From Nemertoderma westbladi (Eukaryota > Animalia > Xenacoelomorpha): a stretch of 64,000 nucleotides of DNA. The translations under genes were made by a program, and so were the position numbers. The notes under the pieces were generated by a model. That model ran no database searches. It was given only the letters and a program-made list of their open reading frames with translations, and was not told the origin of the DNA. Numbering within the stretch: the first letter of the stretch is position 1; the number at the start of each line of letters is the position of its first letter. The stretch spans positions 56,813 to 120,812 of the forward strand of contig JAUCBJ010007758.1 in NCBI GenBank assembly GCA_032718475.1. The letters run 5' to 3'. Positions 1 to 31,091 of this stretch are shown one piece after another.

Positions 1-428
1 CGCTGCCCCTACTTCCTAATCGTACTTAATCGGACAAGTGCTCTACACACACTGTAATCCGTTCAGACTTAACAGCAATCAGACAACAGCTCAGCCTACA
101 AATTGTCTGCACAATCTGATCAGGCTTACACGCCTTCTGTTCAATACTGGCCTACAAACAAATAAAACTTGACAGAAATAAGTAAAAATCTCAATAAAAA
201 ACCAGGGCTGCAGTCCCTGATTAATTATTAAGGCCTACTGGTATATAATAATCAAAATCGAATAATACTGCTGTACCTGTACTGCTGTAGGTACCGGTCC
301 GGGTGGTTAGGTAGTCAGGCCTACTGGTACCGGTTCTGGCAGTTGGGCCTACTGACCTACAGATGTACCGGTTGACCGGTACTTTCAACTTTATTGCTTA
401 CTGCAATAAAGAAACATATATCCTTTAA

Positions 429-1620
429 TGTTCGCGCTTTCAGACCTTTGGCAGTTTAACCCGCCAAATTATGATGTCTTCTAGATATTAAATCGCTTTT
501 CTGCCTACGACAAATATTTGATTCACTACACTAGTCGAAACCAATCCGTGCGCGACCATTCACCCGCTGGATATTCCCGGGAGATTGGGTTCGACGGTTT
601 AATTTTATTGCTATGTAAGCCTAATGTATTATTCGACTGACAGTATTATATAATCTCTGACAATATTATTTACCTTCGGGAATATTAACAGTTCCTTTAG
701 GACGTGGCGCTTTATCTACATAAACAGAGTTATGACTTAAACTACTCACAACGATATGGCTTAATTATAATTCACATATATGGCGCATTCTTTAGGAATG
801 CTTCTTTAACAGACTCACTCATACACAATGCTGCACAATACTGCACACTAATCTGCCGATCTTCACTGATTTTAGTCACATATAAAAGAAACACAGACTG
901 ACTCATGTAGGGTCTATCAAATAACATTAGATTCACTTCAAACCACTTTAACATAAGTCACAATCGTTTATCTGTAACCTTTCTCTCTTACCTTCGGTAT
1001 ATCAAGAATATTGGGTTTCGGGGTATTTATCGTTATTCCAAATATAATAATTCATCCACAAATATAATGAATAACCGACAGTAAATAGCAGTATAAAACA
1101 ACAACTGAACACTGATTGTTATGAGTTTGCAATGTTTCAGCAGTCAGTAGTATGCCGTGCGTTAGGTATGCAGTCCGCAGTTAAAGGATATATGTCCTTA
1201 TAATTAAACCTGCTAGTGTTAAACTAAAAAGCAGAAAAGCACAAAACACTATAAGCCGTTCTTTCGTGGCTTTGAAAAACTCGTGACTACGAGAATACCA
1301 ACTACACTTATTCCCCAAAGCTCCCGTTCAACACAGAGGATGAGCAGTGAGATAGGAATTTTCAGTTCAGTAGCTCAGGATTGGTTAAAATCCAGGATAA
1401 CTCCAATTTCTATTGGAAGATACAAAAACAGGCTATGACGCAACCCTCTTAGGCTAGTTGGACGATTAACAGAGCCCAGATACCTGCATCCCACAAATCA
1501 GCCAATAAGCTGGTAGCTTACACTATTTTAACTATAGATCACTTTGAGAGTATTCTTAGCGACTGGGGGGGAACTGGCCAACAAGGCAAACGAATCAGTT
1601 ATCCCACAAAAGCTTTTACA
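429..1620 (-). mobile_element. 5' LTR of LTR element 'E' (body extends left out of window)
   Basis: The minus strand reads TGTAAAAGCTTTTG...GAAAGCGCGAACA (TG..CA termini). Homologous to 1699-2964, 11275-32474 and the TSD-flanked solo LTR at 60881-61927. AATAAA lies near its 3' end (~609-604). A leader follows at 428-1. Confidence 0.85.
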
Positions 1621-1698
1621 GAAGTACCGGTTCAGGTTTACCGGTTGACCGGTACTTTCAACTTTATTGCTTACTGCAATAAAGTCAATGACTGTTAT

Positions 1699-2964
1699 TG
1701 TACGCGCTTTTGAAGACCTTTAGCAGTTTAACCTGCCAAAATTTATATGTCTTTTGGTTTATAAATATACTTTAGAAGAAGACAAATATTTAATACCAAT
1801 AAACACAACATTAGCAGAAGCCAGCCTAGTGCGCGTCCATTCACCCGCTGGATAATCCCGGGAGACTGGATTCTGTCGGCTTAAATTATTATTGCAGTGA
1901 AGCTTACTGTATTGTATTATTCGATTGATCGTTAATAATTAATTTCTGACTAATATTATTTACTTTCGGGAAATATTAACAGTTCCTTTAGGACGTGGCG
2001 CTCTATCTAAGTAAACAGAGATATGACTTATACTAATCACAACGGTAAGTCGGTAAGGCTTAAGATTCACGTATGAGGCGCATTCTTTAAGAAATGCTTA
2101 GTTATCAATCACAATCATGCACAATACCGGTAACACACAATACCGCTCACTAATTTGCCGACCGTCAATGAATTTTATCATATATAAAGGGAATAGCAAC
2201 GGACCAATGTAGTGCTTATTAAATAGCATTAAATTCACTACAAACCACAACAATATAAGTCGCAATCGCTATATATAACCCGTCTCTCTAACCTGTAGTG
2301 TATCAAAAAAAAGGGAAATTTGGGTTCTTTATATATGTTCTCCAAATGATATTCAACCAAACACAACAGTAAATAGCAGTATAATAATGTATGTTAAACA
2401 GTAATAACAACAAAGTATTGAATTGTGAATGGAATTGTTAAGATTAGATTGGATAACAGTCATACGCTCTATAATTTAAGCCTACTAATGTTTCTTATAA
2501 AAGTATGAAACGAATTGATTCTAGAGCCGTTGTTCCTGGCCTAGACAGCAATAACAACAAAGTATCAAGAAAAAAACAGTAAGACTGAACACACTCCTTA
2601 TGATTGACCGAAAAGCTACACGTCGACAGGAAAAATCGCTCTGATTGGCTCAAGCCAAACAAAGAACCATGCGTCCAATGGCTGTTTCCATGTCAGCAAC
2701 CAGCTGTTAGATGTCGTAATATGAATCATCACGGCTAAGCTATGAAAGGTATTTGCCGCATTGCAGGTTTTTTGTCTTACCATGTCCGCTAATACACGTA
2801 TATAGCAAAATGACTTTTATGTCCGTTAAAACACCTGTAACGGTACCTTGAGGGCGAGGGGAATATTTATACAGTTATAGAACCTTTTTAGAGTATTCCA
2901 GCATCTGGGGGGAAACTGGATTGCGAAGCAAAGGGGCCAGTTATATCTCACAGAAGCTTTTACA
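1699..2964 (-). mobile_element. 5' LTR of related LTR element 'D' (leader 1698-1621 interrupted by element E)
   Basis: The minus strand reads TGTAAAAGCTTCTG...AAAAGCGCGTACA. Long shared blocks with 429-1620 (e.g. aacagttcctttaggacgtggcgct). It cuts the Pao RNase H ORF at YWTDAS. Confidence 0.8.
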
Positions 2965-3992
2965 GATGCGTCCGTCCAATAGAATAAGGTCAATGTCGTG
3001 TCTAACTCCTTTATTATCTGCTTACTTACCTCGACTGAAACTACTGCCGCCTGTAACTCTGCACGAGGGACAGTCATGTATTTGACCGGCATTGTCTTTG
3101 ATCTAGAAGTCACAAAGGCCGTCTCAAACTTGTCCTGACTTACCTCTCGGCGAAGGTAGGCTACCATACCAAAGCCGGTGTCACTTGTGTCACTGAATAA
3201 GTGGAGTTCGAGATCAGCTGGAAATACCAGCTGATTCGGAAAGTAGGATCGGGGCACATCTATATTTTTCAATAGATGTAACTCTGCTTCCCACTCTCTC
3301 CACTGCTTTGCATGTATAGGAGATATTGGTTCGTCCCACTCTAGGTCGGACAACCAAATTTTCCTCATGCACGCTTGTGCCTGTAATATTACCGGACTGA
3401 TAAAGTTCATCGGGTCAAATAGTCTACTCAATGTCGATAAGCAAATTCTCTTTGTCAAAATCTTGTCTGGGCTACTGGGCTCAAATCTAACTCTCACCTG
3501 GAACTTGTCCGTGTTCGGATTCCTAGCGAGTCCCAGTACTCGCGCCATGGGGATTGGTTCTACCCCCAATTCAATGTCTCCGCTCCCGCAATCTTTCACC
3601 GGGAACGATTCTAATAGGGCCTCCGAATTAGTAGTGAACTTGGTCAGAGGAAAACCCCCTGTTGCGAACCATTGGTTGATACCCATAGGTCTGGAAACCG
3701 GGCTCCGGGCTCTCGCTTCTGCTACACTACCCTCCCTATCACTCACCTCTGTCCGGGCTGCTGTGCAGTTCTTCCTTACAGTAGTGGTAGGGGATCCTAA
3801 TACTATTACTGGTGTTCCTTGCTCTTCCTCACTAGTTACTGTCTTGTCCTCCTGTTCACTTACGTCAGCGTCGCTTGCTGCGTCGTCATAGTCGGCATTG
3901 TCGTCAACAGTAATATTAACGCTATCGTCAGTCGGCGGTCCAGCCGCCGTCTCATAGCTGTCCTCTAGTGCCTCCTTGTCTGAGACACTCAT
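2965..3992 (-). pseudogene. Internally deleted BEL/Pao polyprotein of element 'C' (acidic gag N-terminus fused in frame to RT-end/RNase H region)
   Basis: Pao motifs GGFPLTKF, TKRICLSTLSRLFDPMNFISP, LHLFSDTS, VPRAELQAA and FYWTD. An acidic low-complexity N-terminus joins them directly. The ORF-track tail below 2965 is LTR D sequence. Confidence 0.85.
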
Positions 3993-6163
3993 AGTCTAAA
4001 TAATGTTTTGCCTTCCGGCTAAAATCTCGCAAAATTTCGAGATTTAATTATAATTTAACCGAAAATACGGTCAAATTATTTGTCTAATAATTAGTTGGTC
4101 CAAAATGTCAAATAAATTCGCAATGCAATATTGTGAATTTAATAGGATATAGTTATAGCAAATACTAGAACAATATTTAAACAAAATATTATTATATAGC
4201 TATTATAGCATTTAAATACCGGTATAGCACAAAATAACCTTGAATCTAATACAAAAAACCATGGCCAGCTAAACCTAACTAACCTAACTAATAAATTGAG
4301 TTCAGCTTCGCAGTTAAACAACCGGTAATTTTTTACTGCTTCCACAAACACAATGGTGCCAACAGGACAACTAACCTTGTTTGCTGTGAGATTCCACATC
4401 CGCGTCCAAAGATTCAGGCTCTTCGCTGATTGCGAACCGAACCCGCAGACCCACACGAACCCCAAACTCAGAAGTTCCGTCTTGCCATCTATCTCCAGAT
4501 GGTATAAAATAACTAAGCGGTTACCTAACATACCGGTACAAAACTCTAGATTTTACAAATAATTTTGACCGAAACTGAATTCTCGCAAACCTAGCTAAAA
4601 TTTTCAAAAAACTTACTAATTACAGTTTGCCCTAAGGGCCTAAGGAACTGCTGTATTCGCAATTAGCAAAAAACGCACTACCGTACATCCACTGTACGCA
4701 ATACAGTAAGTAAAACAGTACACCAACCTAACAGCCTAAAGAATACTGTATGTGGTACAGCAAAACAAATGTCCTTTCTACCGTACGCAGTAACAGCAAT
4801 CAGCCTAATGCACTAATGTACTACTGTACTACTGCATGCGACCAATGAATACAGTAATCTAAACTAACAGCCTAAGAATACTCTATTTACTGTACGCTAC
4901 AGCCTACAGCAAACAAAATACACATTACTGATACGAAGTAACAGTAAATTAGCCTAATGTACTACAGTACTACTGCATGCAGCAGCAAAAGTACACATTA
5001 CTGATAAACACGCGCGTTACCTATACTAACAGCAGAACTGTTGAACAGACAAATACCGGTATACTTCTCTGCCAACCTAATAAGTTCCCGCCTAACCAAT
5101 AAGACACAAATACTGCTCTACTGTTAAATAAAGGTAATCAGGAGCGTGCTACTACTAAAACGTAGGGCTGCTAAATATAAAACCGCTACTTACCGTTGGA
5201 TGGCGCTAATCTGCCGTCTGCTAATATAATTTTACTAAATTTACACGGCTCCTGCAAAATCACTTGTTCCTTTCTCTACCGATCGCTCGACAGAGAGCTA
5301 ACTGTTCGAATCTATGAGCCACGCGGGAATAACCAAAACAATAAACCCGAGTCGGCTCCCTAAGCTTACTTAAGACGAGTGTGAAAGACATTACACTCAA
5401 GAGTATATTCTTACGCCTAATCTTACTGTTAAAGTACGCTAATGCCTATGTCTTTTCTAATCGCGAATACTGGGGGTTGCCTAAAGGAATGTGTGAATGC
5501 GAGAATATTTAAATAATCAAAAATGGTACAGTACACTGTCTCGCGTGAGTAATATCGTTCTAGGTCTAAAACTTGCCTGCAGCTGGCTTTAGGCCAGAAA
5601 ACTACTAGTGTGTTCCGCGTACCGAATAATGCGATCTAGCTTATTGCCCGCTAATGCAAATAACCGCTCAGCGTGAATAGTTTACGGTACTCTAAATTAT
5701 TACCTTAGCTACTCTCTGCTATGCTGCGTACTAATTCTTAATTTTACTAATTAATTACAGTCACAAATGTATAACAGCATACTAATTACTAAGAGTTCCA
5801 GAATGCGTAATTCTAACTTATTACACAACAGGTTTCACTAGTAACAGTCTAAAAATACTGTATTACTTTGACCTAATTAGTAATTATTTACAGTAAACTA
5901 AGAAATAGAAATCAATCAAAGAGAAAAGAGCGCCTACCTAAGCATTCGTAATCATATGCACACTTCAGTAACACACCAATCAGCATTAGCAATCACAGTT
6001 TGCAATGTGCAATTCGCAATCGCACGATTCGCAATTTTGCAGTTTACAACTGTAATGTGTACAGGTCTTTCCCGGGTACATCCAGGCTTCCTAACTAACC
6101 CAATTCCTGCCCCCCTAATGCTACAAAATAGAGACAAAATCTGGATCATCAGCCCCTAATTAC

Positions 6164-7264
6164 TGTACCAGCGAAATGGCCTTACGCTACAGAGTAAACC
6201 GCCCGACCGCAACGGTAACCCCCCGCCAGCATTGCCCGCCTTTTGAATCCTCCGCACTCCCTTCGTCGCTAACCCCCCGATGCGCCCACCGCCTACCGGC
6301 ACCTTAGCCCTCCATTAGAATGAATAGCTACCGTAGCGGCGCATGCAAATCACAAAGTCTGACAGTTTCAGAAAATCCCGTAGGATTATTGCGTCGAAAG
6401 GAATTACATAGAACCATTAACAAAAGGGGTAGAAATCATAGTTCCGATTGTAATTAGCAGTAATCGTTGGAATTGATTGAGAAACACAAGTGAGAATAAT
6501 CTAATTAACGAATCATTCCAAGAAATCAATCGAAAAGGTAGAAATGCAGAAAATACGCACAAATTGTACTCCTAAACTTAACACAGAATAATGAGATTGT
6601 GGTGGTGGTGAAAATGTACAGCTCTACCGGCAAACCGCCAATTTATAGGTGATTCGAGTGGGGTGATGCAATCGCTCTCTCATTGGCTCTCCAATCCGCG
6701 CTATCATTAGACCAACCTGGAAGCAGTTAGTCCAATAAGAAAGCCGGATTGTAGCCCTATTGCCCCCAAAACCCACAAAACGTCACCATATAAGGTAATT
6801 TTGCCGGTGCTTAATTTAGCGGTACTAATAACATGATGCACAAACATTAATTTAGCGCAAGTATAGGAAATTAAGACCCGTGATAGCTAGCCCCATCAAG
6901 GCTAATAACAGCAAGCCTAAAATCCAGGGTCCAACTGAACTTGCTACCCTGGAACTATCTACTTATATCATATTACAAAATTACATAGGTAGGGCTACAT
7001 ACTATACAAAATGGATGAATTCAAAATATATGGGCGTTTCAATTTCCTTATCTAAATGTCACTGCGCTATTATGCCTTATCTAAATAATTGTACTGCATA
7101 ACGGACTAATATGTGATACTATATAATGGACTAATATATTATACTGTATAATGGACCAATATATTATACTGTATAATGGCTAATAATGTGTACTGCATAA
7201 TAACTAATATTGTGTATACAGTACAACAGCTAACAATGTGGATACAGCGCCATATACCATAACA
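6164..7264 (-). mobile_element. Probable 5' LTR of element C
   Basis: The minus strand starts TGTTATGG at 7264, exactly where similarity to LTR-A stops, and ends TGGTACA at 6164. CCAAT boxes and CTATAAAT at ~6648-6641. Followed by the PBS-like TAATTAGGGGCTGATGATCCAGAT. No second LTR in the window to confirm. Confidence 0.55.
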
Positions 7265-8246
7265 CATATAGATATAAGGGTATGATAAATAATAAGAATT
7301 AGCACAGTTAAAGTGAACGATGTATAATGTACCGGTAAAATGGTTTAATACTGTATAGCAGTAGACGGAGATGAATGTGATTAGAGTTCCGGTACTACCC
7401 TAACTAACTGACTTACTGAAGTGAATAGATTGGCACAAGAACCGGTAATATATATTGCACTGGTTGGCCGCATTACGTTACTCAGTTGATGCCTTCCCCC
7501 CATTGGCTAATAACTCACTTTTCACCCTCCCATCTCCCTGGGAGTGCTCCCCCCCCCCCCCCGCTGCTGTCTCTCTCTCCCTTCCGGGGGTTTAACCTCT
7601 GACCCCAGCTGCGTGTGTTCCCTTGGGGTCTGTTGTCCCCGCTTATTGGGGTGACATGAGGTTGATTGGTAATCAACCTCGTGCTCCCAATATCGCCTAA
7701 AACCAACTTTGTGTGGGCCTGGTTAGCCGAATTGAATACACTAACACTCCCCCCCATGCTATCTTCCTGGTGAGAAGATAGCATCCACCTCTAGTGCGCT
7801 ACAATTCCGCCGGATCTCGATCTAGCATCGAGTGTGGGGTGGAACTATTTTTCTCGGAGCCGGCTTTCCAGACCGCCCCCAATGGGTATGATATCGCTAC
7901 CCTGTTTACCTGGCATCCCGTGTCGGGCCGATCGTGCGCTTCTCTCACACGACTTTTGTTTCCCCAACACTTTCGCCACATCAACTCCACTCTGTTCTCA
8001 CCCTGACTCTCCTCTACTTCTCCTCACTTCCGCTCTAACTCTCGGATTTCCCTGTCCCTCACTCAGCCTCTTATTCCTCCACCCCCCCCCCCCCCATACT
8101 TGAATTGCACCCGCACTCTCTCCGCACTACAACTCAACCCCTATCTTACTCACTCACTCCTGACGAGTTTTACCCCCCTCCTGTGCCGTCGCACTCAAGA
8201 AGTGTGATGTCGTCCAGTGTCTCGTCAACGGGAGTATTATAGTCCA
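7265..8246 (-). mobile_element. LTR type A, copy 1 (interrupted at 7264 by element C)
   Basis: Near-identical to 33093-34069. Begins TGGACTATAATACT on the minus strand. Confidence 0.85.
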
Positions 8247-8248
8247 TT

Positions 8249-14185: not shown

Positions 14186-14190
14186 GAATT

Positions 14191-14951
14191 TGTGGGTGTG
14201 CTAAGCCACAACTTACAGGGGTGAAATCTTACAGCACAGAAGGTTCGCCATGTCCTGCAATTGTCTGATTGTTACAGTTGAAAAATTGTGAATAATATAA
14301 ACTGACATAATTGTATTGAAATTATTGTTTGTACAAAGACAGAAAGATATGTTGAGATAGATATTGATGTATAGAAACTGGTACATGAATGTCAGAATGT
14401 TACATAATATATCGGACTTTACAAATACTGTAACAGCACAGCATATAACTATATAAAGTAACCAATCTAAACTATAGAACAACTATAACTAAGAACTATC
14501 AACTATAATAAGAAATATAATGAGAACTATGCTACTATACTATACTATATTATACTACTATACTATTGAAAGATCATGGAGCTTCCTACCCCTGATTGAC
14601 TGCTTCCGGTGTCTGACTGTATGTATGCATGCAGTGCGTCAGTACTGCAGTACCAGTATGATGTTCTGACTGCTGATCAATAATAATGATGCCAGCTAGG
14701 CAGAACAGATTCCTGATATTACGGAGGTTGGGATGGATAAGCCAATCAGGGAACAGGACAGTAATCCTACCATATAAGGTTGCGTGCGCTGTCTCTATTA
14801 TAAGGAGACAGCTGGTAATAAAATGCACAAATAGAAATATATGTGGGGCGAGTCATAAACTATGAAAAGCTCTAAGGTAATATAATATTCTTAGTTAAAG
14901 ATAATAAAGATATTGTAACTCTCTATATAAATGCATAATAGGTAGTTGACA
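14191..14951 (-). repeat. 3' LTR of full-length BEL/Pao
   Basis: Direct repeat of 27475-28235. One substitution noticed (gcagtgcgtc vs gcagtacgtc). Confidence 0.97.
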
Positions 14952-16153
14952 TCCCCACACCCACGACAGTGGCTTAGGGCCGCTGCCGTAACTATAAATT
15001 ACGACATAATATGTACATATATAATATATAATGCACAATGAAAGGACATATAAAGTAATAATGTGAAATCAAACTCAAATAAAGTCACATAATATTTATA
15101 TCTTTACAAATGTCGGTTGGTGCTTTTGACTAGTTTTAAAATCTCACAATTGATTAAACAAATTATAAACTAAAACTCAGCTCAAAATGCACAAATAAAT
15201 GCCATTCTTATATATAGAAACTCTACTAATTTATATAGATTACTTTCAATGAAAATAATTACCGTAATTCATAGTAATAATGTTTCTTAGTAAGTTAAGA
15301 CATACTTAATAACAATATAAGTCCATAGATAAGATTAAATTGAGAAACGGTAATTCAAATATTCACCAAGGAGTATTAAAGAGAGCAAAAATGAATACGA
15401 AAATACGAAAGAAAATACCATGAAATAACTATATATAACATCAATATAGTCATCAATCTATTATTACTAATTATAATCGAAGTACATCAATCATCGTAAT
15501 GTTAGTGATATTGAACTGCTTTGATCGACTTTATTCCCAAACATCGAGTAACAAGTATAAAACGAGTTGTATATAAACACTAAATCCATTATCGTCAACA
15601 AACATAAATTAAATTAGAGGGTAGAGGGATTGGGTTCAGAATGGGGTAAGGGACAAGAGAGACCAGGGGGGGGGGGAATGGAAAGGGAAAAGAGGGACAG
15701 GAAGAACGATACGAGAGGAATAGGCTGGACAGTGGACAGGGAAAATAAAGATGTCATATCAACAATGGAGCGCGCGCATCCTGGGGCGCCCCCACACCCG
15801 TGAAACGTCACGGGAGGATAGATAAGGGAATATCAATTGCATAATAATAAAACTGTATTCATTATGTAGATTGCATGCATATCCAATCCATCCAAAAATT
15901 CACATCTATATAAATAATAGAATATCATTATATCATTAAGTCGTATCCATATCCATATCGTATCATTATCATTATCAATCAGCATATATAAATATATAAG
16001 TATATAAAATAATGAATTTAGTAACGGTAATTATAACATCATCATTTGGGTATAATCCATTAGTAATTGTTGACCATATATCATTACAGGGTTGTATATA
16101 ACTTGAGTATATGTATAATATATATATATATATATAAATTAGAGTAGATATCT

Positions 16154-19100
16154 TTAATCTGCTTGTTCTAACAAGCAAAGTGTATGAATTGGGCGCTCAA
16201 GAAGTGAGCCACCTTTGAGTAAAACTTCAGCTACTCGGACTTGTTTATCTTCACCCGGGAAGACTTTAGTGACTCGTCCGATTGTCCAAGCTCCCTTGAT
16301 GGAATCATCATCCATCACAAGAAAAACATCATGAACCTTAAGGTTGTAGCCTGGACGGTACCACTTGGTTCGGGTATGTAAAGTAGGTAGATATTCACGA
16401 ATCCACCTGCTCCAGAAAAAGTTAGAAAGAACTTGGGCTTGTCTCCAGGTGGTTTCAACACCTTTATTTGCGGTAATAAACAATCCTGGTGGGAGGTTTG
16501 AGACTGGATCTAAACAAAGTGCGTGGTTAGGAGTTAGAACAGTATCACCATGAACATCATCAGTGGTGAGGTACAGTGGCCGACTGTTCATAATGGCTGC
16601 GGCTTCAGAGAGAACAGTGCGGAGTGTGTCCTCACTGACAAGCTGCGTTTCCAATGTGATTTGTAATATCTTCTTTGTCATTCCAACAAGACGTTCCCAA
16701 ACACCAGACATGTGAGGAGCACATGGGGGCTGCCAATGAAATTTGAGTGTATGATTGGGTACTAATACGTTTGAGAAATCGATATGTTGAAGATCCTCTA
16801 GGGCCTCCTTCAGTTGTTTCTCTGCACCAACAAAGTTTGTTCCATTGTCAGAATACATGTGCGCAACTCTTCGAGCTCTCGAGTTTATGAAGCGACGGAA
16901 TGTATTGATGAATGCATTCGTGGATAAGTCCGAAACAAGATCGATATCGACTGCACGAGTTGTTAGACAAGTGTACAACACTACCCAACGCTTAATTGAT
17001 CCACGACCATATTTAGCCTTGACTGGGCCAAAATAATCGACACCCGTATGTGTCCATGGAGGAAGATATGGAATAGTACGAAAATGTGCCAAATCTGCCA
17101 TACGTTGTTTCATTCGCTTACGATTTCGAATCTTACAAATCATGCAACGACTTAAAAATCTTAATACCTGATTCCTCAACCCAATAATCCAGTAACTACG
17201 GCGGATCTCATTTGTCATATGTTCACGACCTGCATGTCTCAAGGAACGATGAAGATCATTTATGAGGATAGGAATAATGGCTGAGTTCTTGGGGATAATT
17301 ATGGGATTTGATTCATCAAAATTCAAGGCAGTGGTTACACACCTTGAACCCATTCTTATCAATCCATCACTATCAATATGTGGATTAAATCTCTCAATAG
17401 GACTTCCTTTACGAACTGGAAGATTGGAACTTAACCTTACAAGATCATCTTGAAGCGGAAGTTGAGAATACTTGAGGACTGCGATTTTCGCTGCAAGTAT
17501 CTCATCTGGACTCAAACGATCTTCAAAGGGAGGTATGAGCTCAGAACTGTTATGACATTTATAATATTGCGCTATACAAGCACGACGAATACGTGCTATG
17601 CAACGATATAGACGATCTGATTCGCTAAAATGTTCTATAAATTTACGAGTATACCCATTGGTATTTGCTGAATTGGTAAAATTTATTGAAATATCCTGCC
17701 TCAACTCTGAAAGATCATCAGGATAATCAGTATCCTTAACATGCGTTTTTGGCCATGATTCCTCTGGGCCACTAAGAAACTGTGGTCCATTAAACCATCT
17801 CTTACTATCTACAAGTTGTTTAGGGGTCAGACCCCGAGAAACATCATCTGCAGAGTTACACTCTGTAGGAACATAACGCCAATTATCAGTGGAAGTGTTT
17901 TTACGAATTTCTGTTACACGATTGTCAACAAAGGTTTTGAGCTGTAACTCAGTATTCTTAATCCAGGCAAGAACAACTTGCGAGTCAATCCAATAGATGA
18001 GTCTTGAGATTGTATAATCTATTTCGCGAGTGACAGCTAGACTTAAACGGAGAGCCATGATTGCTGCCTGTAACTCTAAACGTGGCATTGTAACTGCACG
18101 AAGTGGAGCAGTGCGAGCCTTAGAAGTTACAAAGGATGTGAATGAATCCTTACGTCGCAAATAAATGACTACACCATATCCCTCTTTACTAGCATCAGAG
18201 AAAATATGAAGCTCAAAAGGCTCAAGAGGATCATGATCTGGAAAATACGCACGAGGAATGTGTAAGTCTTGAAGGGTGGGCAACTGAACTTTCCACTCTT
18301 CCCAAGAATGGGCCAGACTTGGGGGCAATTGTTCATCCCAAGAAAGTTTATCTGACCACATCTTACGTAATAATAATTTCCCTAGAAGAGTGACAGGAGA
18401 AATGAGACCCAAAGGGTCATATAAGGAAGATAATGAGGAAAGACATCCTCTTTTAGTAAGAGGTGATACTTGGACCTGAACACGATAACCAAACTCATCT
18501 GAGTCGGTGTTCCATCTAACTCCTAAGGTTCTACTATAGGGAAGATGGTCAAGGTCCAAATCAACCTCCTTTGAAAGACGATTAGTAGAAATATTGTCTC
18601 CTTGGATTTGAGTAAGGAATTCTCTGCTATTACTTAGAAAGCAAGTAAGGTTGAAACCTCCTTGCGCTAAGCAAGATATAAGGCCCCGGGCTAAATTTAC
18701 AGCCTCATCTAATGTACGGAGGGATGGCAATCCATCATCCATATAAAAATTACGTTGTATTGTATCATTTACAATTGGGGGGTACTGAGACTTATTTTTC
18801 TCACCAGTAATTTGCACACCATGTATCGCTATACATGGGGAGTCCTTTTTCCCAAAACAATGTCTGGTCATTCTATATTCCTCGACCATACCATGGACTT
18901 TATCATCCTTCCACCAAAGAAATCGAAGACTATCTTGATCTTTGGGGGGAACCTTGATCTGGTGGAACATTGCTTCAATATCACACATGAATGCAATATT
19001 CTCTTGGCGGAAACGAAGCAATATTCCCCAGATCAGGTTCAAACGGTTAGGTCCTGACAGCAGCATATCATTTAAACAATGACCACGAAACTTTGCTGCA

Positions 19101-20386
19101 GCGTCATTCACTATTCTTATTTTTCCTGGTTTTTCAGGATAAGTAATATAGTGATGGGGAATATAATTTGTTTGAGGGGTAACCGTTAAGTCATCACCTG
19201 TCAATTTGATGGCATAACCTTTGTCAATATAGTCATGTAATTTGGATATATACGTAGGTAAATGCTGCTGAGAGTCTTGATTATTGAGGAAACGTTTCCC
19301 CAAAGAATACAAGCGCTTCTCAGCTAAGGGTCGATTGAATACAATCTTATTGGGATCACATTTCCATAGCATCCCTACTTCCCATTTTCCCTCTGTTTCA
19401 TCAAAAACAGTGGTTTCCTTAAGTATTTGTAGTGCACGTTTGTCATCATCAGACTCTTTGACAACTGAGTTGTCCTCATCCTCAATCCGATTGTCTCCAA
19501 AGTTTTCCAATTCCCAAAATTGTGAGAGAAGTTTATGGATATCAATAGGAGGATTTGGATGAGAGACTTCTTGATTGTCATATATGCGACTGTGGTTGAC
19601 AAAGTATGATTTCCTTTTATTTTGTAGGGTGTTATCTAGAGCTATAGGACCTGATATATACCAACCAAATGGAGACAAGACTCCATAAGGTTCAGTTTGT
19701 GGATTATCGCCAAATCTTTGCTCAATGCGATAATGTGCATATGGCAAATTTTGACCAATCACAATACTGATGAATGGAATATCAACAGGTTGAGCTTCAA
19801 GGGATAGAGAAGATAAATGAGGGAAGTTTGAGAATTTGGAGACTGGCGGAGGTCCATCACCTATCCGCAACTGATCACAAACAACAATATCTGTTTCCCC
19901 AATAATTCTTTTTTCCAATGAACTAAATTGGCATCTTGCAATACCAATACTAATATTACACTCATCTCGTAAGAGAGTTGATAAATCAATACTGTCTCGT
20001 TTTGGGGTTATACCTAAATAACGTGTGACTCCTGCATCAACAAATGTTCCTGTTGAACCACCATCCAACAAGGCATATGTTGATACAGACCTCAAGGGAT
20101 CTATATATACAGAAACCGAAACTACAGGTAAACAAGCTGAAGGATCGTCACCCTTCAACTTATTTGACATGTGAGTTATATAATTCTTAGATGGTCCCTT
20201 AGGAACAATTTTAGATTTATCCTTAGGTACTACTATAGGAGTCTCCTCTGGAACTGTCGTTTCCTTTGTAACTACAGTTTTCTGCAGTTGGAGGGGTTTA
20301 CTGGCAGTGGAGTTAAAACTAAGATATTCATGAACTCCATGCATAACAGCACCATGGCTGTCACCACATGTGGGGCATTTAATTCG
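16154..20386 (-). CDS. BEL/Pao pol region (protease, RT, RNase H, integrase), in frame with gag behind a single TGA
   Basis: ALLDGGS (protease), CDIEAMFHQI and FYMDD (RT), HIFSDAS/PRLELQAA (RNase H), H-H-C-C zinc finger, VDYFGP, SDNGTNF, GVWERLV (integrase), and the C-terminal ERPIHTLCLL. Confidence 0.95.
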   Translation of the reverse strand, partial: RIKCPTCGDSHGAVMHGVHEYLSFNSTASKPLQLQKTVVTKETTVPEETPIVVPKDKSKIVPKGPSKNYITHMSNKLKGDDPSACLPVVSVSVYIDPLRSVSTYALLDGGSTGTFVDAGVTRYLGITPKRDSIDLSTLLRDECNISIGIARCQFSSLEKRIIGETDIVVCDQLRIGDGPPPVSKFSNFPHLSSLSLEAQPVDIPFISIVIGQNLPYAHYRIEQRFGDNPQTEPYGVLSPFGWYISGPIALDNTLQNKRKSYFVNHSRIYDNQEVSHPNPPIDIHKLLSQFWELENFGDNRIEDEDNSVVKESDDDKRALQILKETTVFDETEGKWEVGMLWKCDPNKIVFNRPLAEKRLYSLGKRFLNNQDSQQHLPTYISKLHDYIDKGYAIKLTGDDLTVTPQTNYIPHHYITYPEKPGKIRIVNDAAAKFRGHCLNDMLLSGPNRLNLIWGILLRFRQENIAFMCDIEAMFHQIKVPPKDQDSLRFLWWKDDKVHGMVEEYRMTRHCFGKKDSPCIAIHGVQITGEKNKSQYPPIVNDTIQRNFYMDDGLPSLRTLDEAVNLARGLISCLAQGGFNLTCFLSNSREFLTQIQGDNISTNRLSKEVDLDLDHLPYSRTLGVRWNTDSDEFGYRVQVQVSPLTKRGCLSSLSSLYDPLGLISPVTLLGKLLLRKMWSDKLSWDEQLPPSLAHSWEEWKVQLPTLQDLHIPRAYFPDHDPLEPFELHIFSDASKEGYGVVIYLRRKDSFTSFVTSKARTAPLRAVTMPRLELQAAIMALRLSLAVTREIDYTISRLIYWIDSQVVLAWIKNTELQLKTFVDNRVTEIRKNTSTDNWRYVPTECNSADDVSRGLTPKQLVDSKRWFNGPQFLSGPEESWPKTHVKDTDYPDDLSELRQDISINFTNSANTNGYTRKFIEHFSESDRLYRCIARIRRACIAQYYKCHNSSELIPPFEDRLSPDEILAAKIAVLKYSQLPLQDDLVRLSSNLPVRKGSPIERFNPHIDSDGLIRMGSRCVTTALNFDESNPIIIPKNSAIIPILINDLHRSLRHAGREHMTNEIRRSYWIIGLRNQVLRFLSRCMICKIRNRKRMKQRMADLAHFRTIPYLPPWTHTGVDYFGPVKAKYGRGSIKRWVVLYTCLTTRAVDIDLVSDLSTNAFINTFRRFINSRARRVAHMYSDNGTNFVGAEKQLKEALEDLQHIDFSNVLVPNHTLKFHWQPPCAPHMSGVWERLVGMTKKILQITLETQLVSEDTLRTVLSEAAAIMNSRPLYLTTDDVHGDTVLTPNHALCLDPVSNLPPGLFITANKGVETTWRQAQVLSNFFWSRWIREYLPTLHTRTKWYRPGYNLKVHDVFLVMDDDSIKGAWTIGRVTKVFPGEDKQVRVAEVLLKGGSLLERPIHTLCLLEQAD

Positions 20387-23380
20387 TCATGGACACTGAC
20401 CTGATTTATGACCAGGTCGGGTACAATGTGTACAAACAGATGGTTTATGGTGATTTATAATATTAGCCTTTTCCTCGCAAGATTTACTTGCAAATATAGA
20501 ACATCGATAGAGGAAATGACTTTTACCTTTACAAAGGGGACAAGAAGGTGGATTTATTTTTAAAGACTGAGATTTTGAAATATTACTATCTACCATCATT
20601 GATGTCTCTCGTAATTTACTATTACCAGTTGTGGCTCCACTAGCCAGCGACTTATCGGTAGATTGTCGTTGACTCTTATTGGCAGTATGTAAATTGGAGT
20701 AATGTGGATGATCTCCTGCTTCCGCATAAAAATCAACAAAACGCAGGATATCATACAAAGTAGGATCAGAAGGGCGGCCATTAGCAGAACGCCTACGATT
20801 TGATATACGTGTAGCCTCCATTTGCCATTTAATTATTAAATTTTGTGGAAGCCGTGCTATTAGAGCACGTAAGTTATGATGGTTATTCATCTCTTCAGGG
20901 TCATGAAGATGACTAAGTGTATTATAAATGTATCGTATTTGGTCTGCATAGGCTATTAATTCTTTTGGTGTGTTATTGATTGGGGGCTGATTTATAACCT
21001 TATCAAAGGTAGCACGGACAATTTTTGTTACATGACCAAAACGGTGATCCAACAAAGCCCATGCCAGACGATACCTATGAGGAGAAGTAACTAACGTATT
21101 TACAGCTTCTTTTGGAGGACCAGTTAGAAACTGTAAAAGGTAAGAAAACTTCTCTGCATCAGGTATTTGTTTAATGCCAATGGTAGCATTAAAGTTGACA
21201 CAAAAGGAAATATAATTTTCTGGATTCCCATCAAATTTATCTGGATGTGGTAATGGAGTATGAGAACTGAGACCCACTCTGTCAAGCAAGGCTCTCTCAT
21301 ACCTGTCATCCCTTTGTTGATATAAAGGATATTGGGATCCAGAATCACATCTCATGCTTTGAGGAGATTTATATTCATCATTTGGTGGGGGACCTCGTCC
21401 ACCTCCACCTCTGCCCCCACTACCACCATTATTATTAGGTGTGTGGGGCTGCCGAGGTTGATAGCCTCGGTCAGTGGGAGGGGGACCTCGTCCACCATCA
21501 CCTCTGCCTCCACTACCACCATTATTACTAGGTGTGTAGGGCTGGCGAGGTTGATTATTATTAGGAACAAGAGGAATATATTTGGATTCATAGTAGCTAT
21601 TTTCAAAATTACTTGGGTTACGATATTCACACTCAGGTGTGTCTATTGGATGTACGCCTCTTGGAACATCATTTATGGGTGCATATTTAGGTGTATAATG
21701 TATATAGTCAGTGTGTTCAGACAGATGTTTGACATCTTTCGGAACAATATGGTTTGTCCCAGTCCATATAGAATGGGCCTGGGGTAAACTACTAGTATGT
21801 TTACTAGTGTAATTTGTTGGCTCATGTTTCAATGGGCCACAATAATTATCATCTGCTGGAACACAATCATTACCAGATGATTCAAACAACTCAGCAGATG
21901 GTATGTAAGGGGTTTCAAAATATATTTCTTCATTGGGTGGTTGATGTGGGAGATAAGGCACTCCTGTATCAGACACCCTAACCCCAACTCTATTTGAGGA
22001 ACCTACAGGATCTGAGAGGTTATACAAATTAGAGTTATTTTGGACAACATTTTGAGGTCTATCAATAGGCCTGATATTTGGTACAAATGGTGGATTATTA
22101 ACTTTGGATTCCAAAGAAAAACCAACTGATTCTTTTGGGGGATCAAGAGAAGGGTCTTGGGAACTAATATGTAAAGAATGGGGTGTTATGATATTTGCAT
22201 TATTTTGATTTATATTGTTTGTCAAATTTTGAGTTTCAGGTGATACATTATGCTCTTTACCTTGTTGCAAGCGTTGTATTTCTTTCTGTAGCAACACATG
22301 ATGGAGTTCTTTTTGCTGTTGATCATTGTATACCATTTGTTGATTTTCGGCTAAAAGGTCAGACTCATGCTCTGCATCTCGGGAAGCCTGCTCAGCAATA
22401 CGTGTTGCCTCAGTTAGGGCATGACGTGCCTTTGCTCGTGCATCAGCCTCCACTTGAGCTGCTTTAGTAAATGCCATTGAAGATGCTAATTCTGCGTCTG
22501 CTTGTGCACTGCGGGCTCTTGCTTGGGCATCAGCTATTTTTTGCTCCTGAGATCGTTTTGCTAGGATGGATTTTCGTTCAATGTTCTGTTCTCCCTGTTT
22601 AGTTGCAAGTTTGGAAACTTCAACAGCAACACCAGCAATAGCTTCTAATTGCGTGATGGAAGTAGACTTACTACCTCCCGAAAGAGCACTTTTGAAACTT
22701 TTACTAGCATGACTAGTACGAGTAGATTTTGATTTTTTATTTTGATCAGCATTGCTCGCCGATTGAGAGGGATGAATACTGCTTGGAGAACAATCAAAGG
22801 TTCTGTTTACTGTACCTTTGTCAGTATTATTAGGAAGGCCTACATAATGAGAATTGGAATAAATGGATTGGTTTGGTTCTGGATCATGTATGGATTGTTT
22901 TGTTACAGGAACATGTGGATTTTTCATCCACGGGACTTCACATTCCACTTGATCGTTAACCAAACCAAGCATTTGATTCTCTCGTGGTTTCTCATAAGTG
23001 TCATCAGATAGTGGAGTCCACTCGGATTCCTTACTGGAAAATTGTTCCAACAAATTGATGAAACGTTCAGGCATATCTGCCCCTGTGCGATCATAAGCGC
23101 GCTGCAGTACCCTGATCTTTTCAACAACTGTTGAATAAGCTGAACAAATTTTCTGAAGAAGTTCCCCAGATATTGGTAAGGATTTACTTTGGAAGTCATT
23201 AACTTCCTTTTCAATTTTGGCAACATAGCCCAAATAACCATTTATACTCCTGGTAATATCCTTGGTTGAGTCTACCTTGGGTAAATGTTCTTCAATGGGC
23301 TGGTCTGGTCTGTTTAAATGGACAGATTCAGACCCCTTTTGTCTCACAGTGGGGTTGTCTCCATAATTTGGAGATGCCAT
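20387..23380 (-). CDS. BEL/Pao gag
   Basis: 997-aa ORF with KFDGNPENY/EKFSYLLQFLTG capsid-like region and CCHC knuckles (CPLCKGKSHFLYRC, CTHCTRPGHKSGQC). Also a duplicated GGSGGRG..GRGPPP block. Confidence 0.93.
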   Translation of the reverse strand: MASPNYGDNPTVRQKGSESVHLNRPDQPIEEHLPKVDSTKDITRSINGYLGYVAKIEKEVNDFQSKSLPISGELLQKICSAYSTVVEKIRVLQRAYDRTGADMPERFINLLEQFSSKESEWTPLSDDTYEKPRENQMLGLVNDQVECEVPWMKNPHVPVTKQSIHDPEPNQSIYSNSHYVGLPNNTDKGTVNRTFDCSPSSIHPSQSASNADQNKKSKSTRTSHASKSFKSALSGGSKSTSITQLEAIAGVAVEVSKLATKQGEQNIERKSILAKRSQEQKIADAQARARSAQADAELASSMAFTKAAQVEADARAKARHALTEATRIAEQASRDAEHESDLLAENQQMVYNDQQQKELHHVLLQKEIQRLQQGKEHNVSPETQNLTNNINQNNANIITPHSLHISSQDPSLDPPKESVGFSLESKVNNPPFVPNIRPIDRPQNVVQNNSNLYNLSDPVGSSNRVGVRVSDTGVPYLPHQPPNEEIYFETPYIPSAELFESSGNDCVPADDNYCGPLKHEPTNYTSKHTSSLPQAHSIWTGTNHIVPKDVKHLSEHTDYIHYTPKYAPINDVPRGVHPIDTPECEYRNPSNFENSYYESKYIPLVPNNNQPRQPYTPSNNGGSGGRGDGGRGPPPTDRGYQPRQPHTPNNNGGSGGRGGGGRGPPPNDEYKSPQSMRCDSGSQYPLYQQRDDRYERALLDRVGLSSHTPLPHPDKFDGNPENYISFCVNFNATIGIKQIPDAEKFSYLLQFLTGPPKEAVNTLVTSPHRYRLAWALLDHRFGHVTKIVRATFDKVINQPPINNTPKELIAYADQIRYIYNTLSHLHDPEEMNNHHNLRALIARLPQNLIIKWQMEATRISNRRRSANGRPSDPTLYDILRFVDFYAEAGDHPHYSNLHTANKSQRQSTDKSLASGATTGNSKLRETSMMVDSNISKSQSLKINPPSCPLCKGKSHFLYRCSIFASKSCEEKANIINHHKPSVCTHCTRPGHKSGQCP

Positions 23381-24004
23381 TTCGATTTTGTATAAGTTTA
23401 CTGCTTGAGCAGACTATCAGCCTATGTCCTTATAAATTAAGTAAATTGAATAGACTGTAATAAATATATTAAATAATAGGCTGTTAACTTAGAACAGTAT
23501 ATAGATATATATGTTGCATATAATATAGGAAATATATGATGATTTACTAATTGCCAAATAAACCATAAATAAGAGTTAACTCAGTATTAGCCTATCAGCC
23601 TATATTATACAAAATATGCCTAAAATAACTGAAAGGATGGAAATTAATAAATTAATGTATATATACTCTGTGCAAAAAAATCGTTACAATGGACGGAGTC
23701 AGTGATTAGAACAGTCAAGTTAATGGACTGTTGCTTCACAGAATTGTTATGGACTATTTTAAAGAAAAATAATCAAAAAATGTTGTATTTTCTGCTTTAT
23801 ACTGTACTAGAGTCAAACAGATCAGAAGATAAGAAATGGTCAATGTCAAGTCAGGCAGTCAGGTAGGACATTCACAAATTATTAACAGTACCGGAATAAA
23901 TGTGAATGGGGGTAGCTAGGCCCCACTAACAACCGATGCTGGAAACAAATGTAAATTATCCATATGTGAATGTTAGTCAGTCGGTGTAAAGTAGATAGAG
24001 TCGT

Positions 24005-26467
24005 CCCTGCAAACAATTTTCTTTCGAGGAATGTCAGAAAAACATCATTAATTTGTTATAAATGTTGATAAATGTCATTCCCTTGTTTGATAGAATATTT
24101 AGATGTTCAATATATATTATTTTAACATTATTCTATAATGTCTTTGTCAGACATTAAATAAATGATAACTGTTGATGTTAGAAAAACGTAATTTTAATGT
24201 GAGAACATAAACATTAGTCAAAAATGTTTTATAAGTGTTTAGTTCTAACATTTTAAGAACATGGTTTGTTACATATCAGAACAATGTTATTTTGTCACAT
24301 AAAATAAACATTATGCGATAGACGCTGCTGTCACTTCTATTATCTAATCTGAGATTGATGATTGGCTAATTTTAAAATTGGCGGTAATGGAGGAATTTTC
24401 CACATGTAAAATAGTATACAGTATGGCATGTTGTACAATACTCATTCTGGCATGCCTGTATTCAATGTTTATTGTGTATATGTATTGTTATACTGCTGTA
24501 CTGCAAGGCCTATCTCTATATTACTGTAGTGATGTAGTGTAGTTACTGCAGGCCTACTGCACTGTACAGTAGCTTATATTTTTGGTTTTATAGTCTTGGT
24601 TTTGTGATTTATTTAACCTGAACTCATAAATAAAACATATCTACCTGAATGCGAGTTCGCCTTTACCCTCTGGATTCACACATTACTGCATTAGACCTAC
24701 CAATTACAGAATTCAAGTCTGCCAGGACCAGGAAGTCCCCTTAAACCAGCACTGACAGGTGGAGGATTGACTTATTTGTCTGTACTGATGGTGGATTTCA
24801 ACAGCCGAGGACTAAAGATTGGAATTCTTATTATTGGGAGGTCCCAGTTTTCAGTTGAAGGGGCAGGGCACAGGGACAGCATTACTACAACACTTTGAAA
24901 ACTTCACATTAACTGTTATTTCAAACTATTTATTGTTTCAGTTTTTAGATTGTACTTTTGTAGGGCCTAGGCCTATTGATTTATTTTTACAGTTTAATAA
25001 ATGAAGCTCACTCAGCTATAATTATAATTAACATTTAATTTTTTAAATATGATTTGTTCAGATAGGGAGGATTTGCGATGCAATCAAAATCATCCCTCTC
25101 CAGGGAGATATCGATTCAAATAAGTACTGATTACTCTCCCAGAAATAAATCTGTAAAATCTGTATATGTGCCTCTGTAGCCAACTGTAACCTGCTCCTTT
25201 TAATAAATTTAACATTGTTGTGAGGTATTATTTATTAAACCCACTATATGTACATGTATATGTATATGTATCTTTTTCAATGGTAATATGGATAATATTG
25301 AACAAATGTGTAGGTATATAGAGTCAGTAATGTCTGTATATTAAGCGTAGGTTATTACCATTCACTAGATATTCCGGTTTATTATGTCGGTTTGTTTGTT
25401 ATTTTTGTGTTAAATTACGTTGAAATAATTTTAGTATTCGCTAAAGTTCTCAAGACAAAATAGACAGTTTCAAAAATCTACTGGACAATTTATATAACTG
25501 TGTCAATAACTAATTATCGTAAAGGTTTTGTGCAGTATTATATTTGATATTATTTGTACCGCATATGTAAATTGTCAATAAACATATCTATCTATCTACA
25601 TTATTTTATATAGACTACAAATCAGATCTATAAATCTAGTGAATAATATTAACTCAAAGTATTTTAATTGATGCAATTCATTACGTTGTTATCACTTATT
25701 ATTACGTCATAAACATATTCTTTTTAAGTCTGTGATTAACTTTAACCGAAATATCAAAACCATTTACATAATGGGCCATACAGCCATATATTTGTTGTTT
25801 ACTTATTCTGTGATATTTTACTTTGATTTTACTGTTTATTTCATTATTTGTTCCTGACTGGTCATTATACAAAAAATTCAATTCATGTTATACGTTTTAA
25901 TTGTTATTAATTTGCATACAATTGCCTACAACAAAATTGTATTCAATCAAACTGTGTTAGAGATTGTAGCCTGCCACTACCATATCAACATGCGTAGGGA
26001 AATTATTAATTAATTATTCAATAAAGGGTTTGGCAATTACAAAGAACGATAATAAAGAACGGCAATGGAGGGGGATTATTAGTTTGAGAGCAAGCGAACC
26101 ATAAAACATGAGAGAAGGGCTTAATTGCACGTAAATTTAATGTTACGTTTTTAGCAAACAATATTTTTATGTTAAGAAATAACATAACAGTAACGATCTA
26201 AATAAACATTATGCCATTGTTATTTTAATGTCAATAAAAATACAATAATAATGATAAGGAATAACATAAAAGTAATGATATATGTAACCATCCTGGCTTT
26301 GTTATTTTAATGTTATTAAAAACGAAATAATAACGTTAGTATATAACGTCATATTTCTTGGCCAATTTACAGTTTTTTTATCATTAATCTAACAATTTGA
26401 AATAATGTTATCTATGTCATTAAATAACATTTTAGTAACAGCTTTTTAACAATACATTGTTTGCAGG
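24005..26467. mobile_element. Non-autonomous DNA element (CMC/EnSpm-like termini) inside the BEL 5' UTR
   Basis: TIR CCTGCAAACAAT (24006) / ATTGTTTGCAGG (26467). Degenerate aacatt/aatgtt subterminal repeats at both ends. No ORF. TSD unclear. Confidence 0.55.
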
Positions 26468-27474
26468 TAACAGTTTGTTAGTAGGTAACAGTACAATAAT
26501 ACAGTAGCAGAAAATATATATCACCTGGCAGAATGTATACAAGGCAATATGTAGGATTTTTTAAATGCTGATGACACAACAATATGTGCAAATATGCGTA
26601 CAATTGTACGACTAAGTCAATACTACAGTAAGTATAATATTGTAGAAAATGTAACTTACTAATGAGTGGCCTAATACCAATTGTAAAACTTGTCCACAGA
26701 AATAGGCCTACTTACTGAGTAACAAAAGGTAGAACTAATGTCTACAAATTCAAACGGTAGATGAAAACCAATATCTACAAGAAAATGTACTAAATGTAGA
26801 ACAAATGTCTACAAATACATATGGTAGGTTGTAGGTCTGTAGGTAGATGAAGAACCAATATCTACACATGGAAATAAACGAAACAAAAGGTAGAACTAAT
26901 GTCTACAAATGCATACTGGTATGGGTAGAACTTATCTACCAGTCTGTCAGTTAAAATTAACTAACACAACATTACTGCATTAGATAGATACATCAGTACA
27001 TACCTGCATACATACATACAGTCAGGCAGACACCGGATAAAATTTAGAACAAAAAATAATAATGTAGGCTTAGCCTACTGTCAGACTGTTGCACTACTGT
27101 ACTAAGACTGTTCGGTTAGGCCTATTAAGATTTACAGTGGTAGCCTATCTATTTACAGTACCGTATTGATAGAACAATAGCAGAATAGAGTGAAGTGAAC
27201 TAACCAAAACACAGCACTGTACTGGTACCGGTACTGGTTGACCTACCAGCCTACCGTCTGACCGTAACGGACTGCAGGACTGACAGAAATATAGTAGGAA
27301 TCGGTACATATAAAATTCAATACAGTAATTCTGTAATTGGTAATTAGCTACTGCTGTACTGTGCTACAACATTAGACCATAGGTACCGGCTGACCGGTAC
27401 GGCATACGGTAGGCCTAGCTGCCTGTGCCTAGTACGGTACAAAAGTATGAAACGGAAAAAAGATCTTTCAAGAT

Positions 27475-28235
27475 TGTGGGTGTGCTAAGCCACAACTTAC
27501 AGGGGTGAAATCTTACAGCACAGAAGGTTCGCCATGTCCTGCAATTGTCTGATTGTTACAGTTGAAAAATTGTGAATAATATAAACTGACATAATTGTAT
27601 TGAAATTATTGTTTGTACAAAGACAGAAAGATATGTTGAGATAGATATTGATGTATAGAAACTGGTACATGAATGTCAGAATGTTACATAATATATCGGA
27701 CTTTACAAATACTGTAACAGCACAGCATATAACTATATAAAGTAACCAATCTAAACTATAGAACAACTATAACTAAGAACTATCAACTATAATAAGAAAT
27801 ATAATGAGAACTATGCTACTATACTATACTATATTATACTACTATACTATTGAAAGATCATGGAGCTTCCTACCCCTGATTGACTGCTTCCGGTGTCTGA
27901 CTGTATGTATGCATGCAGTACGTCAGTACTGCAGTACCAGTATGATGTTCTGACTGCTGATCAATAATAATGATGCCAGCTAGGCAGAACAGATTCCTGA
28001 TATTACGGAGGTTGGGATGGATAAGCCAATCAGGGAACAGGACAGTAATCCTACCATATAAGGTTGCGTGCGCTGTCTCTATTATAAGGAGACAGCTGGT
28101 AATAAAATGCACAAATAGAAATATATGTGGGGCGAGTCATAAACTATGAAAAGCTCTAAGGTAATATAATATTCTTAGTTAAAGATAATAAAGATATTGT
28201 AACTCTCTATATAAATGCATAATAGGTAGTTGACA
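27475..28235 (-). repeat. 5' LTR of full-length BEL/Pao
   Basis: Direct repeat of 14191-14951. Followed on the minus strand by ATCTTGAAAGATC, not a TGG tRNA PBS. Confidence 0.97.
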
Positions 28236-28240
28236 GAATT

Positions 28241-30372: not shown

Positions 30373-31091
30373 TTACAGTAATCCAGTCGACGTCAACGTC
30401 AGGATTATTACTACCTGGATTATTACTGCCTGGGTACCATCAGGAGATCTATATTTTTCGAGATCGTCGATTGTAGAAACGGATATTGCTCTTGAGTTCT
30501 CAACAATATGGCGAATTAATATTTGCCCATTGTATGAGTAAGCCGCGTAGATAAAACCTTCTCTTTTCAGGACCTTTACTTCCCGCAGAAGAGCATCGCG
30601 GTGCGTTGTCAGATGGTCAGTGAAATATGCACCACTGGGGAGCTTGTGGTCAACCCCAGCCTTAAAGGCAGAAGACCTAGCCGAATGACCATATAGACGA
30701 ATAAGTATAGCGCGCGGTTTATCAGAAGCAGTATGCCTGGACTTTTTTGGCCCTTGTCTATGGAACACATCTACGCGACCTGGTCCTAAATCGATTCCAG
30801 AAAGGATTTTCTTGATATCTTCGCGATCCTCTGACTGTGCGAGTTTCTCTGGTACTCCGTGAAGTAGAATGTTATTTCTTCTAACATATTGGGCTAAATC
30901 GTCGTTGGCTCTGTCTAAAGCGCTGTAACTTTTTTTTCTAAGACCTCTTTTCTCTGTTCCAAAACATTTACTGCAGATTTTAACCCCGCTAGGTTTTTGG
31001 TATTTTCCTCTATAGCAGACGTTTTAACTTGGAGATCGGATATTTGTTTTTGTATAGAGTCCAGCTTCTTTAGGATCTCGGCAGCCTCCAT
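30373..31091 (-). pseudogene. LINE ORF1 (coiled coil + RRM-like), frameshift in poly-T near 30930
   Basis: MEAAEILKKLDSIQKQISDLQ..., QYVRRNNILLHGVPE, HRQG..KPRAILIRL and YFTDHLT. Confidence 0.8.

Follow-up and report, generated by a model that had tools for sequence, protein, structure and literature searches.

How do long terminal repeat (LTR) retrotransposons that carry no site for a tRNA primer begin reverse transcription? This question is raised by a 64,000-nucleotide (nt) stretch of Nemertoderma westbladi DNA (GCA_032718475.1, JAUCBJ010007758.1:56,813-120,812, forward), hereafter the window, to whose positions all coordinates refer. Three of its minus-strand elements, the related D and E and a full-length BEL/Pao element (referred to below as BEL), lack TGG among the 8 bases that follow the LTR, and each has a primer-binding site (PBS) complementary to a site within its own LTR. 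This complementarity, its specificity for the own LTR, the compensated divergence of D and E, and the recurrence of the signature in a wide BEL/Pao clade, where it is mostly split by a GT..AG interval, are all observed directly. It appears probable that D, E, BEL and a wide clade of BEL/Pao relatives are primed by the element's own RNA, without a tRNA, and in many BEL/Pao members priming likely becomes possible only after splicing.

Primer-binding sites complementary to the own LTR

The initial annotation described the PBS of each element as an exact reverse complement of a site in the same LTR, and the sequences bear this out at the positions listed in Table 1, with 15 of 15 letters matching in E, 11 of 11 in D and 10 of 10 in BEL. 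The LTR ends were set independently of these matches, those of D and E by alignment to a solo copy of the same family, F; so defined, the matches of D and E begin at base 1 after the LTR (offset 0). Chance was assessed with offsets 0-5 permitted, using dinucleotide shuffles of the own LTR and foreign LTRs. For E, none of 500 shuffles and none of 22 foreign LTRs attained 15 nt. For D, 11 nt turned up in 1 of 500 shuffles and in none of 22 foreign LTRs, and for BEL, 10 nt turned up in 1 of 500 shuffles (3 of 300 in another run) and in none of 23 foreign LTRs, so the matches are specific to the own LTR, as had been claimed for D and E. As a background, 15 of ~2,400 ACA ends in the window reach at least 11 nt with a 1,300-nt look-back. 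The match is strong in E and good in D, and the BEL 10-mer taken alone is modest, its chance being roughly 0.2-3%, depending on the null.

The predicted probability of the PBS-LTR helix is 0.96, 0.90 and 0.96 for E, D and BEL, respectively, in folds begun at the site, which favors the helix. The own pairs have duplex energies of -17.1, -12.5 and -11.9 kcal/mol, compared with -3.8 kcal/mol or weaker for swapped pairs. When E, D and BEL were read as split (spliced), the result was not significant, with 439, 30 and 310 of 500 shuffles, respectively, doing as well, and blind scans of 4000-7300 and 48700-50200 revealed no convincing LTR end with a self-match.

Compensated divergence of D and E

The LTRs of D and E are 75% identical across 615 nt, and their sites, at distances of 752 and 754 nt from the end of the LTR, occupy the same aligned columns and are therefore homologous. 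They nevertheless differ in sequence: 5 of the 11 pairs have changed on both sides and none is broken, in agreement with the compensatory change noted in the initial annotation.

The D/E family is abundant in contigs of the same organism, in which the PBS forms a variable, poorly covered patch flanked by two conserved, well covered blocks; in X1, the summed contig depth is ~230,000 and ~510,000 at the flanks and 28,000-38,000 at 1685-1690. At position 1690, the ninth letter of the D PBS, most contigs differ from D (14, 29 and 21 contigs in X1, X2 and X3, respectively), and this deviating letter still pairs with D's own LTR. Likewise, loose contig ends carry an E-like PBS that differs from that of E at its far end, where E matches its own LTR. 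A site variant of solo F, sought as a PBS variant in the contigs, was represented by one of its two letters. Such variability is consistent with a PBS that would be re-templated from the primer, an indirect fit.

Some additional features of this family can be mentioned here. The LTRs of D, E and F have conserved AG|GT-type motifs ~165 nt past the site and again ~35 nt short of the LTR end (at ~2293 and 1734 in D); a spliced reading of D that uses such motifs gives 10 of 11 pairs and is not significant.

Split and unsplit matches in other BEL/Pao elements

A comparison of own and foreign LTRs across families had been proposed as a check. An alignment of 40 pol proteins led to 79 metagenome loci and 17 genome-bin loci, and 18 further regions came from the bins behind these; a search of viral_contigs produced no relative. 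Counts are based on 21 elements with LTR ends fixed by two copies, which make up 18 LTR families. From the 96 + 18 loci, those without two LTR copies or with the 3' copy ending at the contig end were left out (among them L024, L030, L039, L066, L075, L077, L079, L083, L088 and L094), as were L049 (unsplit match of 12 nt; ambiguous LTR end), L084 and L143 (whose repeats do not resemble LTRs), and L134, a possible nested element with a TGG-type site past a 178-nt repeat, whose inclusion would add a second TGG-type miss. L028, a relative of L047 with a full TGT..ACA repeat, was kept despite its 3' copy reaching the contig end.

The proposed test gave a clear result: matches of at least 10 nt were found with the own LTR in 15 of the 18 families versus 12 of 306 foreign comparisons, and the observed sum was attained in 0 of 100,000 permutations. 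Only two of these families, L026 (11 nt) and L046 (10 nt), have unsplit matches, and in the other 13 a GT..AG interval divides the complement. In most of the split families the contiguous match is just 6-9 nt long and begins right after a pyrimidine tract and AG, and the remaining PBS letters pair with the 3-9 bases directly 5' of a GT lying 67-419 nt upstream. Although the search required GT and AG only, the donors are GTRAG in 12 of the 13 own matches versus 11 of 139 foreign best hits, and the pyrimidine fraction of the acceptor is 0.74 in own and 0.55 in foreign matches. With the GT..AG split in 13 of 15 families and with GTRAG donors emerging unprompted from the search, the partner is most likely spliced RNA. 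Likewise, complementarity present only once a splice junction has joined its halves would point to an RNA partner and away from an artefact of DNA duplication.

Across these relatives, the partner of the LTR site begins 0-4 nt from the LTR end. In the pair L127 and L128, two of the three first-exon letters differ and the PBSs change to match. Nine further 5' LTRs, 2 of them from families already counted, were scanned blind with no null and with GTRAG required; in 7 of the 9 the top hit was a split match after an ACA end. The tRNA-Arg/Gly PBS of the Belpaoviridae profile (see below) is absent from 17 of the 18 families; L129 has TGG at positions 2-4.

Two side observations concern the sampled loci. 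L046 and L049 are short elements with LTRs of 200-250 nt, an ATG directly after the PBS and almost no leader. Animal BEL/Pao elements also occur in GTDB prokaryote bins (L080-L096; up to 77 matches per bin), with L087 located in a Wolbachia chromosome, which reflects either host contamination or transfer.

Phylogeny of split and unsplit forms

Trees were built from reverse transcriptase (RT)-RNase H segments, one set comprising 101 rows and another 26 labelled rows. L026 and L046/L049 are placed among the split forms. A single clade of the four unsplit rows is rejected (p-AU of 0.003, a test that long branches may influence), and at least three changes are needed. Repeated intron loss is the simplest reading of the unsplit forms.

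Proposed mechanism

The following sequence of events can be suggested from the arrangement of these sites. Transcription would begin at or near the 5' end of the LTR site, and the 5' end of the genomic RNA would fold back to pair with the PBS. Cleavage of the duplex would follow where the site has its 3' end and, if Tf1 is a guide, the element's own RNase H would carry it out; RNase H motifs are found in the BEL pol frame, their activity being a prediction. RT could extend the freed 3' end through U5 and then jump to the 3' copy of R. With the PBS re-templated from the primer in each round, the match would stay perfect while its letters drift.

In the ancestral form, the primer would consist of a first exon of 3-9 nt followed, after splicing, by the opening 5-8 nt of exon 2. 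The LTR intron would persist because the RNA's 3' end, left unspliced, would be the template for this part of the LTR. Intron loss may have given rise to the unsplit forms (BEL, L026 and L046/L049). For the marine-animal BEL/Pao clade as a whole, the balance tips slightly towards a primer built by the spliceosome from a capped first exon of 3-9 nt and exon 2, with the intron left unspliced at the RNA 3' end and the unsplit forms arising by repeated intron loss. The initial annotation had envisaged BEL/Pao self-priming analogous to that of Tf1. The family test favors self-priming as such; as the complement is split by a predicted intron in most relatives, the mechanism is likely not a plain copy of that of Tf1.

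Objections and alternative explanations

Several points count against self-priming as outlined above. Transcription start, splice product, cleavage and primer are all predicted, the evidence being at the level of sequence. The TATA-like motif that had been reported in D at the spacing expected of a transcription start (2502-2494) does exist, but its start precedes the site by 36-37 nt and neither E nor F retains it, and a TATA-like word at -29 to -37 is present in only 2 of 18 elements. Pairing in D ends at 11 nt, where the conserved hairpin starts, and extends to 15 nt in E. The coupling of PBS and LTR in individual copies is indirect because the LTR sites are not among the 40 of 242 variants listed. 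For BEL, of the 257 CA ends in its leader, at least 8 reach 10 nt with a 1,300-nt look-back. The long branch of BEL itself groups only weakly with two split forms (85/64), which leaves intron loss in this lineage a conjecture. Three of the 18 families are misses: L087 has a TGG-type site and no self-match; L043 reaches 11 nt only once its LTR end is moved afterwards, a value obtained with 11 of 500 shuffles; and L085 has the donor half, with the acceptor half missing.

The pairing could be real and serve another purpose, as a long-range helix between R and the leader that acts in packaging, dimerization or translation control, with a different primer such as a host small RNA. The helix is predicted whatever its use, the start site and the cut are predictions to which TATA spacing lends no support, and L127 and L128 have further bulged pairing farther upstream. 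However, the partner always begins 0-4 nt past the LTR end, a position at which priming has to take place for that end to be defined. The counted matches, moreover, are purely Watson-Crick, which suggests templated copying, and the TGG site is missing; a structural or regulatory role alongside a different primer is improbable. Priming by a host tRNA half or internal fragment, with the LTR match as a by-product, has precedents in some Copia lineages (half-tRNA priming is described in the accessible text of PMC6317226). It might also be suspected from the TGG of L129. tRNA genes were sought within the window, which contains none and has no match to an Rfam family, and this scope leaves the reading some room. 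Nonetheless, within one family the PBSs differ at 5 of 11 positions and vary among copies, which a single host RNA cannot match, and a tRNA fragment leaves complements split at splice sites unexplained; such a primer is highly improbable.

A different concern is the identity of D and E, which might be self-primers that belong to a known type (Tf1/sushi-type Gypsy or TAR-type Copia), with the 10-nt match of BEL due to chance. The initial annotation had assigned D and E to BEL/Pao by a 5-bp target duplication and a leader motif shared with BEL. The duplication exists, although for this family it comes from the solo copy F only; the shared motif could not be substantiated, as no significant match connects the D/E and BEL leaders, and the D/E leader has a single 27-nt match (E = 0.038), which falls in sequence upstream of a different BEL-like frame. 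D and E also have no coding sequence within the window, their internal part extending past its edge. D and E are therefore only candidate BEL/Pao elements, and it is nearly as likely as not that they are non-BEL elements; both the leaders and the missing coding sequence belong with the objections listed above. For BEL, the chance estimate quoted earlier would leave some room for coincidence, but 15 of the 18 BEL/Pao relatives carry the signature at the same 0-4 nt offset, and the prior for BEL is accordingly high. The combination of familiar self-primers and a chance match in BEL is thus quite improbable, and self-priming by the element's own RNA is retained as the preferred reading for all three elements.

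The full-length BEL element and other features of the window

BEL is a BEL/Pao element by its protease-RT-RNase H-integrase pol, the PF05380, PF03564 and PF18701 domains, two LTRs and a purine tract. Its LTRs show 1 difference in 761 nt, TG..CA ends and a 5-bp target duplication, and the best homologs of its pol are BEL/Pao proteins from marine animals (40-46% identity).

Table 1. Elements, repeats and pairing sites in the window
Feature	Positions	Strand	Description
E LTR	429..1620	-	1192 nt, TGT..ACA; sits inside the leader of element D
E PBS	414..428	-	15 nt, without TGG
E LTR site complementary to E PBS	1181..1195	-	predicted self-primer; helix probability 0.96 (folded predicted 5' RNA)
Hairpin immediately 3' of E PBS	389..411	-	9 bp; conserved in D
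D LTR	1699..2964	-	1266 nt; splits a BEL/Pao RNase H-region fragment
D PBS	1688..1698	-	11 nt, without TGG; hairpin directly after
D LTR site complementary to D PBS	2453..2463	-	homologous to the E site; 5/11 pairs compensated
Solo LTR F, D/E family	60881..61927	+	5-bp target duplication; third sequence variant at the homologous site
BEL 5' LTR	27475..28235	-	761 nt
BEL 3' LTR	14191..14951	-	761 nt
BEL PBS	27462..27471	-	10 nt; starts 3 nt past the LTR, i.e., at the fourth base
BEL LTR site complementary to BEL PBS	27850..27859	-	second copy in the 3' LTR; helix probability 0.96
gag-type frame	20387..23413	-	PF03564 (DUF1759), zinc knuckles; closes at an in-frame stop
pol frame	16154..20386	-	protease-like, RT (YMDD), RNase H region (PF05380), integrase (PF17921), PF18701
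Polypurine tract	14952..14962	-	before the 3' LTR

The gag-type and pol regions share one frame and are parted by a single TGA followed by C (20387-20389, minus strand), between zinc knuckles 2 and 3. This TGA represents either programmed readthrough or a recent nonsense change in a very young element; in Tj1, a stop codon after gag is required, according to the accessible part of PMC4600332. The BEL leader (23414-27460, minus strand) is unusually long, ~4 kb, and contains short internal repeats.

The window contains further BEL/Pao-like remnants on the minus strand. One of them (2826-3995) has an acidic N-terminus fused to the RNase H-region fragment that is interrupted by D; another (43115-48701) comprises DUF1759, protease and RNase H regions, with no RT match detected, followed by unnamed frames. 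A family of ~1-kb units is arranged in head-to-tail pairs (7265-9253, 32994-34255, 37024-37186 and 41831-42589), each unit closed on the minus strand by a short inverted repeat and CACA; one comes after the BEL-like frames at 43115-48701. These units are possibly tandem LTRs or a tandem-propagating element. Of three long minus-strand frames at 55362-59804, two encode AAA ATPases (a 33-nt tandem array is present in one of them) and the third a lipoyl-ligase domain; these frames are either host genes or captured cargo and adjoin a 17-nt tandem array (59871-60770). The segment 60762-64000 has terminal inverted repeats of ~300 nt and a frame resembling an rva_4/HTH_21 integrase (62173-62778), and solo LTR F lies within its left arm.

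Comparison with known systems and implications

Among Ty3/Gypsy elements of fission yeasts, Tf1/Tf2 and Tj1 have a PBS complementary to ~11 nt of their own LTR transcript (accessible parts of PMC7175516 and PMC4600332); self-priming has been proven for Tf1, including the start site and the RNase H cut (PMC7175516), and proposed for Tj1 (PMC4600332). The window elements resemble this Tf1/sushi group in lacking a tRNA site and having a PBS complementary to the own LTR. Unlike it, BEL carries the BEL/Pao set of Pfam domains, and its pol is not that of a Ty3/Gypsy chromovirus; the matches described here span 10-15 nt at offsets of 0-4, the complement of most relatives is split by a predicted intron, and the start site and cut, proven in Tf1, are predictions here. 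Self-priming has also been predicted for the moss element Tcn1 and the Copia TAR lineage (Houba, Osr-1) in the accessible text of PMC6317226, from evidence of the same type; by the rule used there (complementarity of at least 10 bp, located 0-5 bp after the LTR), E, D and BEL would all be counted as self-primers. Those are plant elements from other superfamilies, and the accessible text mentions no intron-split primer.

The Belpaoviridae profile of the ICTV describes an 18-nt PBS for host tRNA-Arg or tRNA-Gly and replication that is poorly understood (PMC8742986). BEL agrees with this profile in its LTRs, gag and pol with BEL/Pao domains, and purine tract, and differs from it, as do 17 of the 18 outside families, in lacking the tRNA-Arg/Gly PBS. 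No report of LTR self-priming or of splice-built primers in BEL/Pao was found in the literature searched, whose scope left aside subscription papers, Repbase reports and supplements that may mention either. PMC3118150 does not mention primer, PBS, tRNA or intron, and the accessible parts of PMC554778, PMC3601003, PMC8220671, PMC3286476, PMC12440569, PMC5443660 and PMC11042837 hold nothing further on BEL/Pao self-priming. The initial annotation knew of no description of the mechanism and considered an independent origin probable. The absence of a BEL/Pao report in this search agrees with the former; as self-priming was already predicted for Copia TAR, Houba and Osr-1 (PMC6317226, accessible text), independent origins as such are not new. 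What is new here is the cross-host test of own against foreign LTRs with its controls, and the link in the tree between split and unsplit forms.

The priming mode of BEL/Pao elements has so far been assumed and not demonstrated, and the sequence rule described here makes it testable. One other possible departure from tRNA priming in this group is Cer7 of Caenorhabditis elegans, reportedly a BEL/Pao element proposed to supply its own primer from a separate tRNA-like segment in its 3' part, with no LTR fold-back; the literature searched yielded no relevant paper on it. If the mechanism suggested here is correct, self-priming would be common in a third LTR superfamily, and host splicing would build the primer in most of the sampled families, tying retrotransposition to the splicing of a very short first exon. 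BEL/Pao elements might then be freed from the supply of tRNA and from defenses based on tRNA fragments, and the pairing would provide an annotation marker for BEL/Pao elements that are currently scored as having no PBS.

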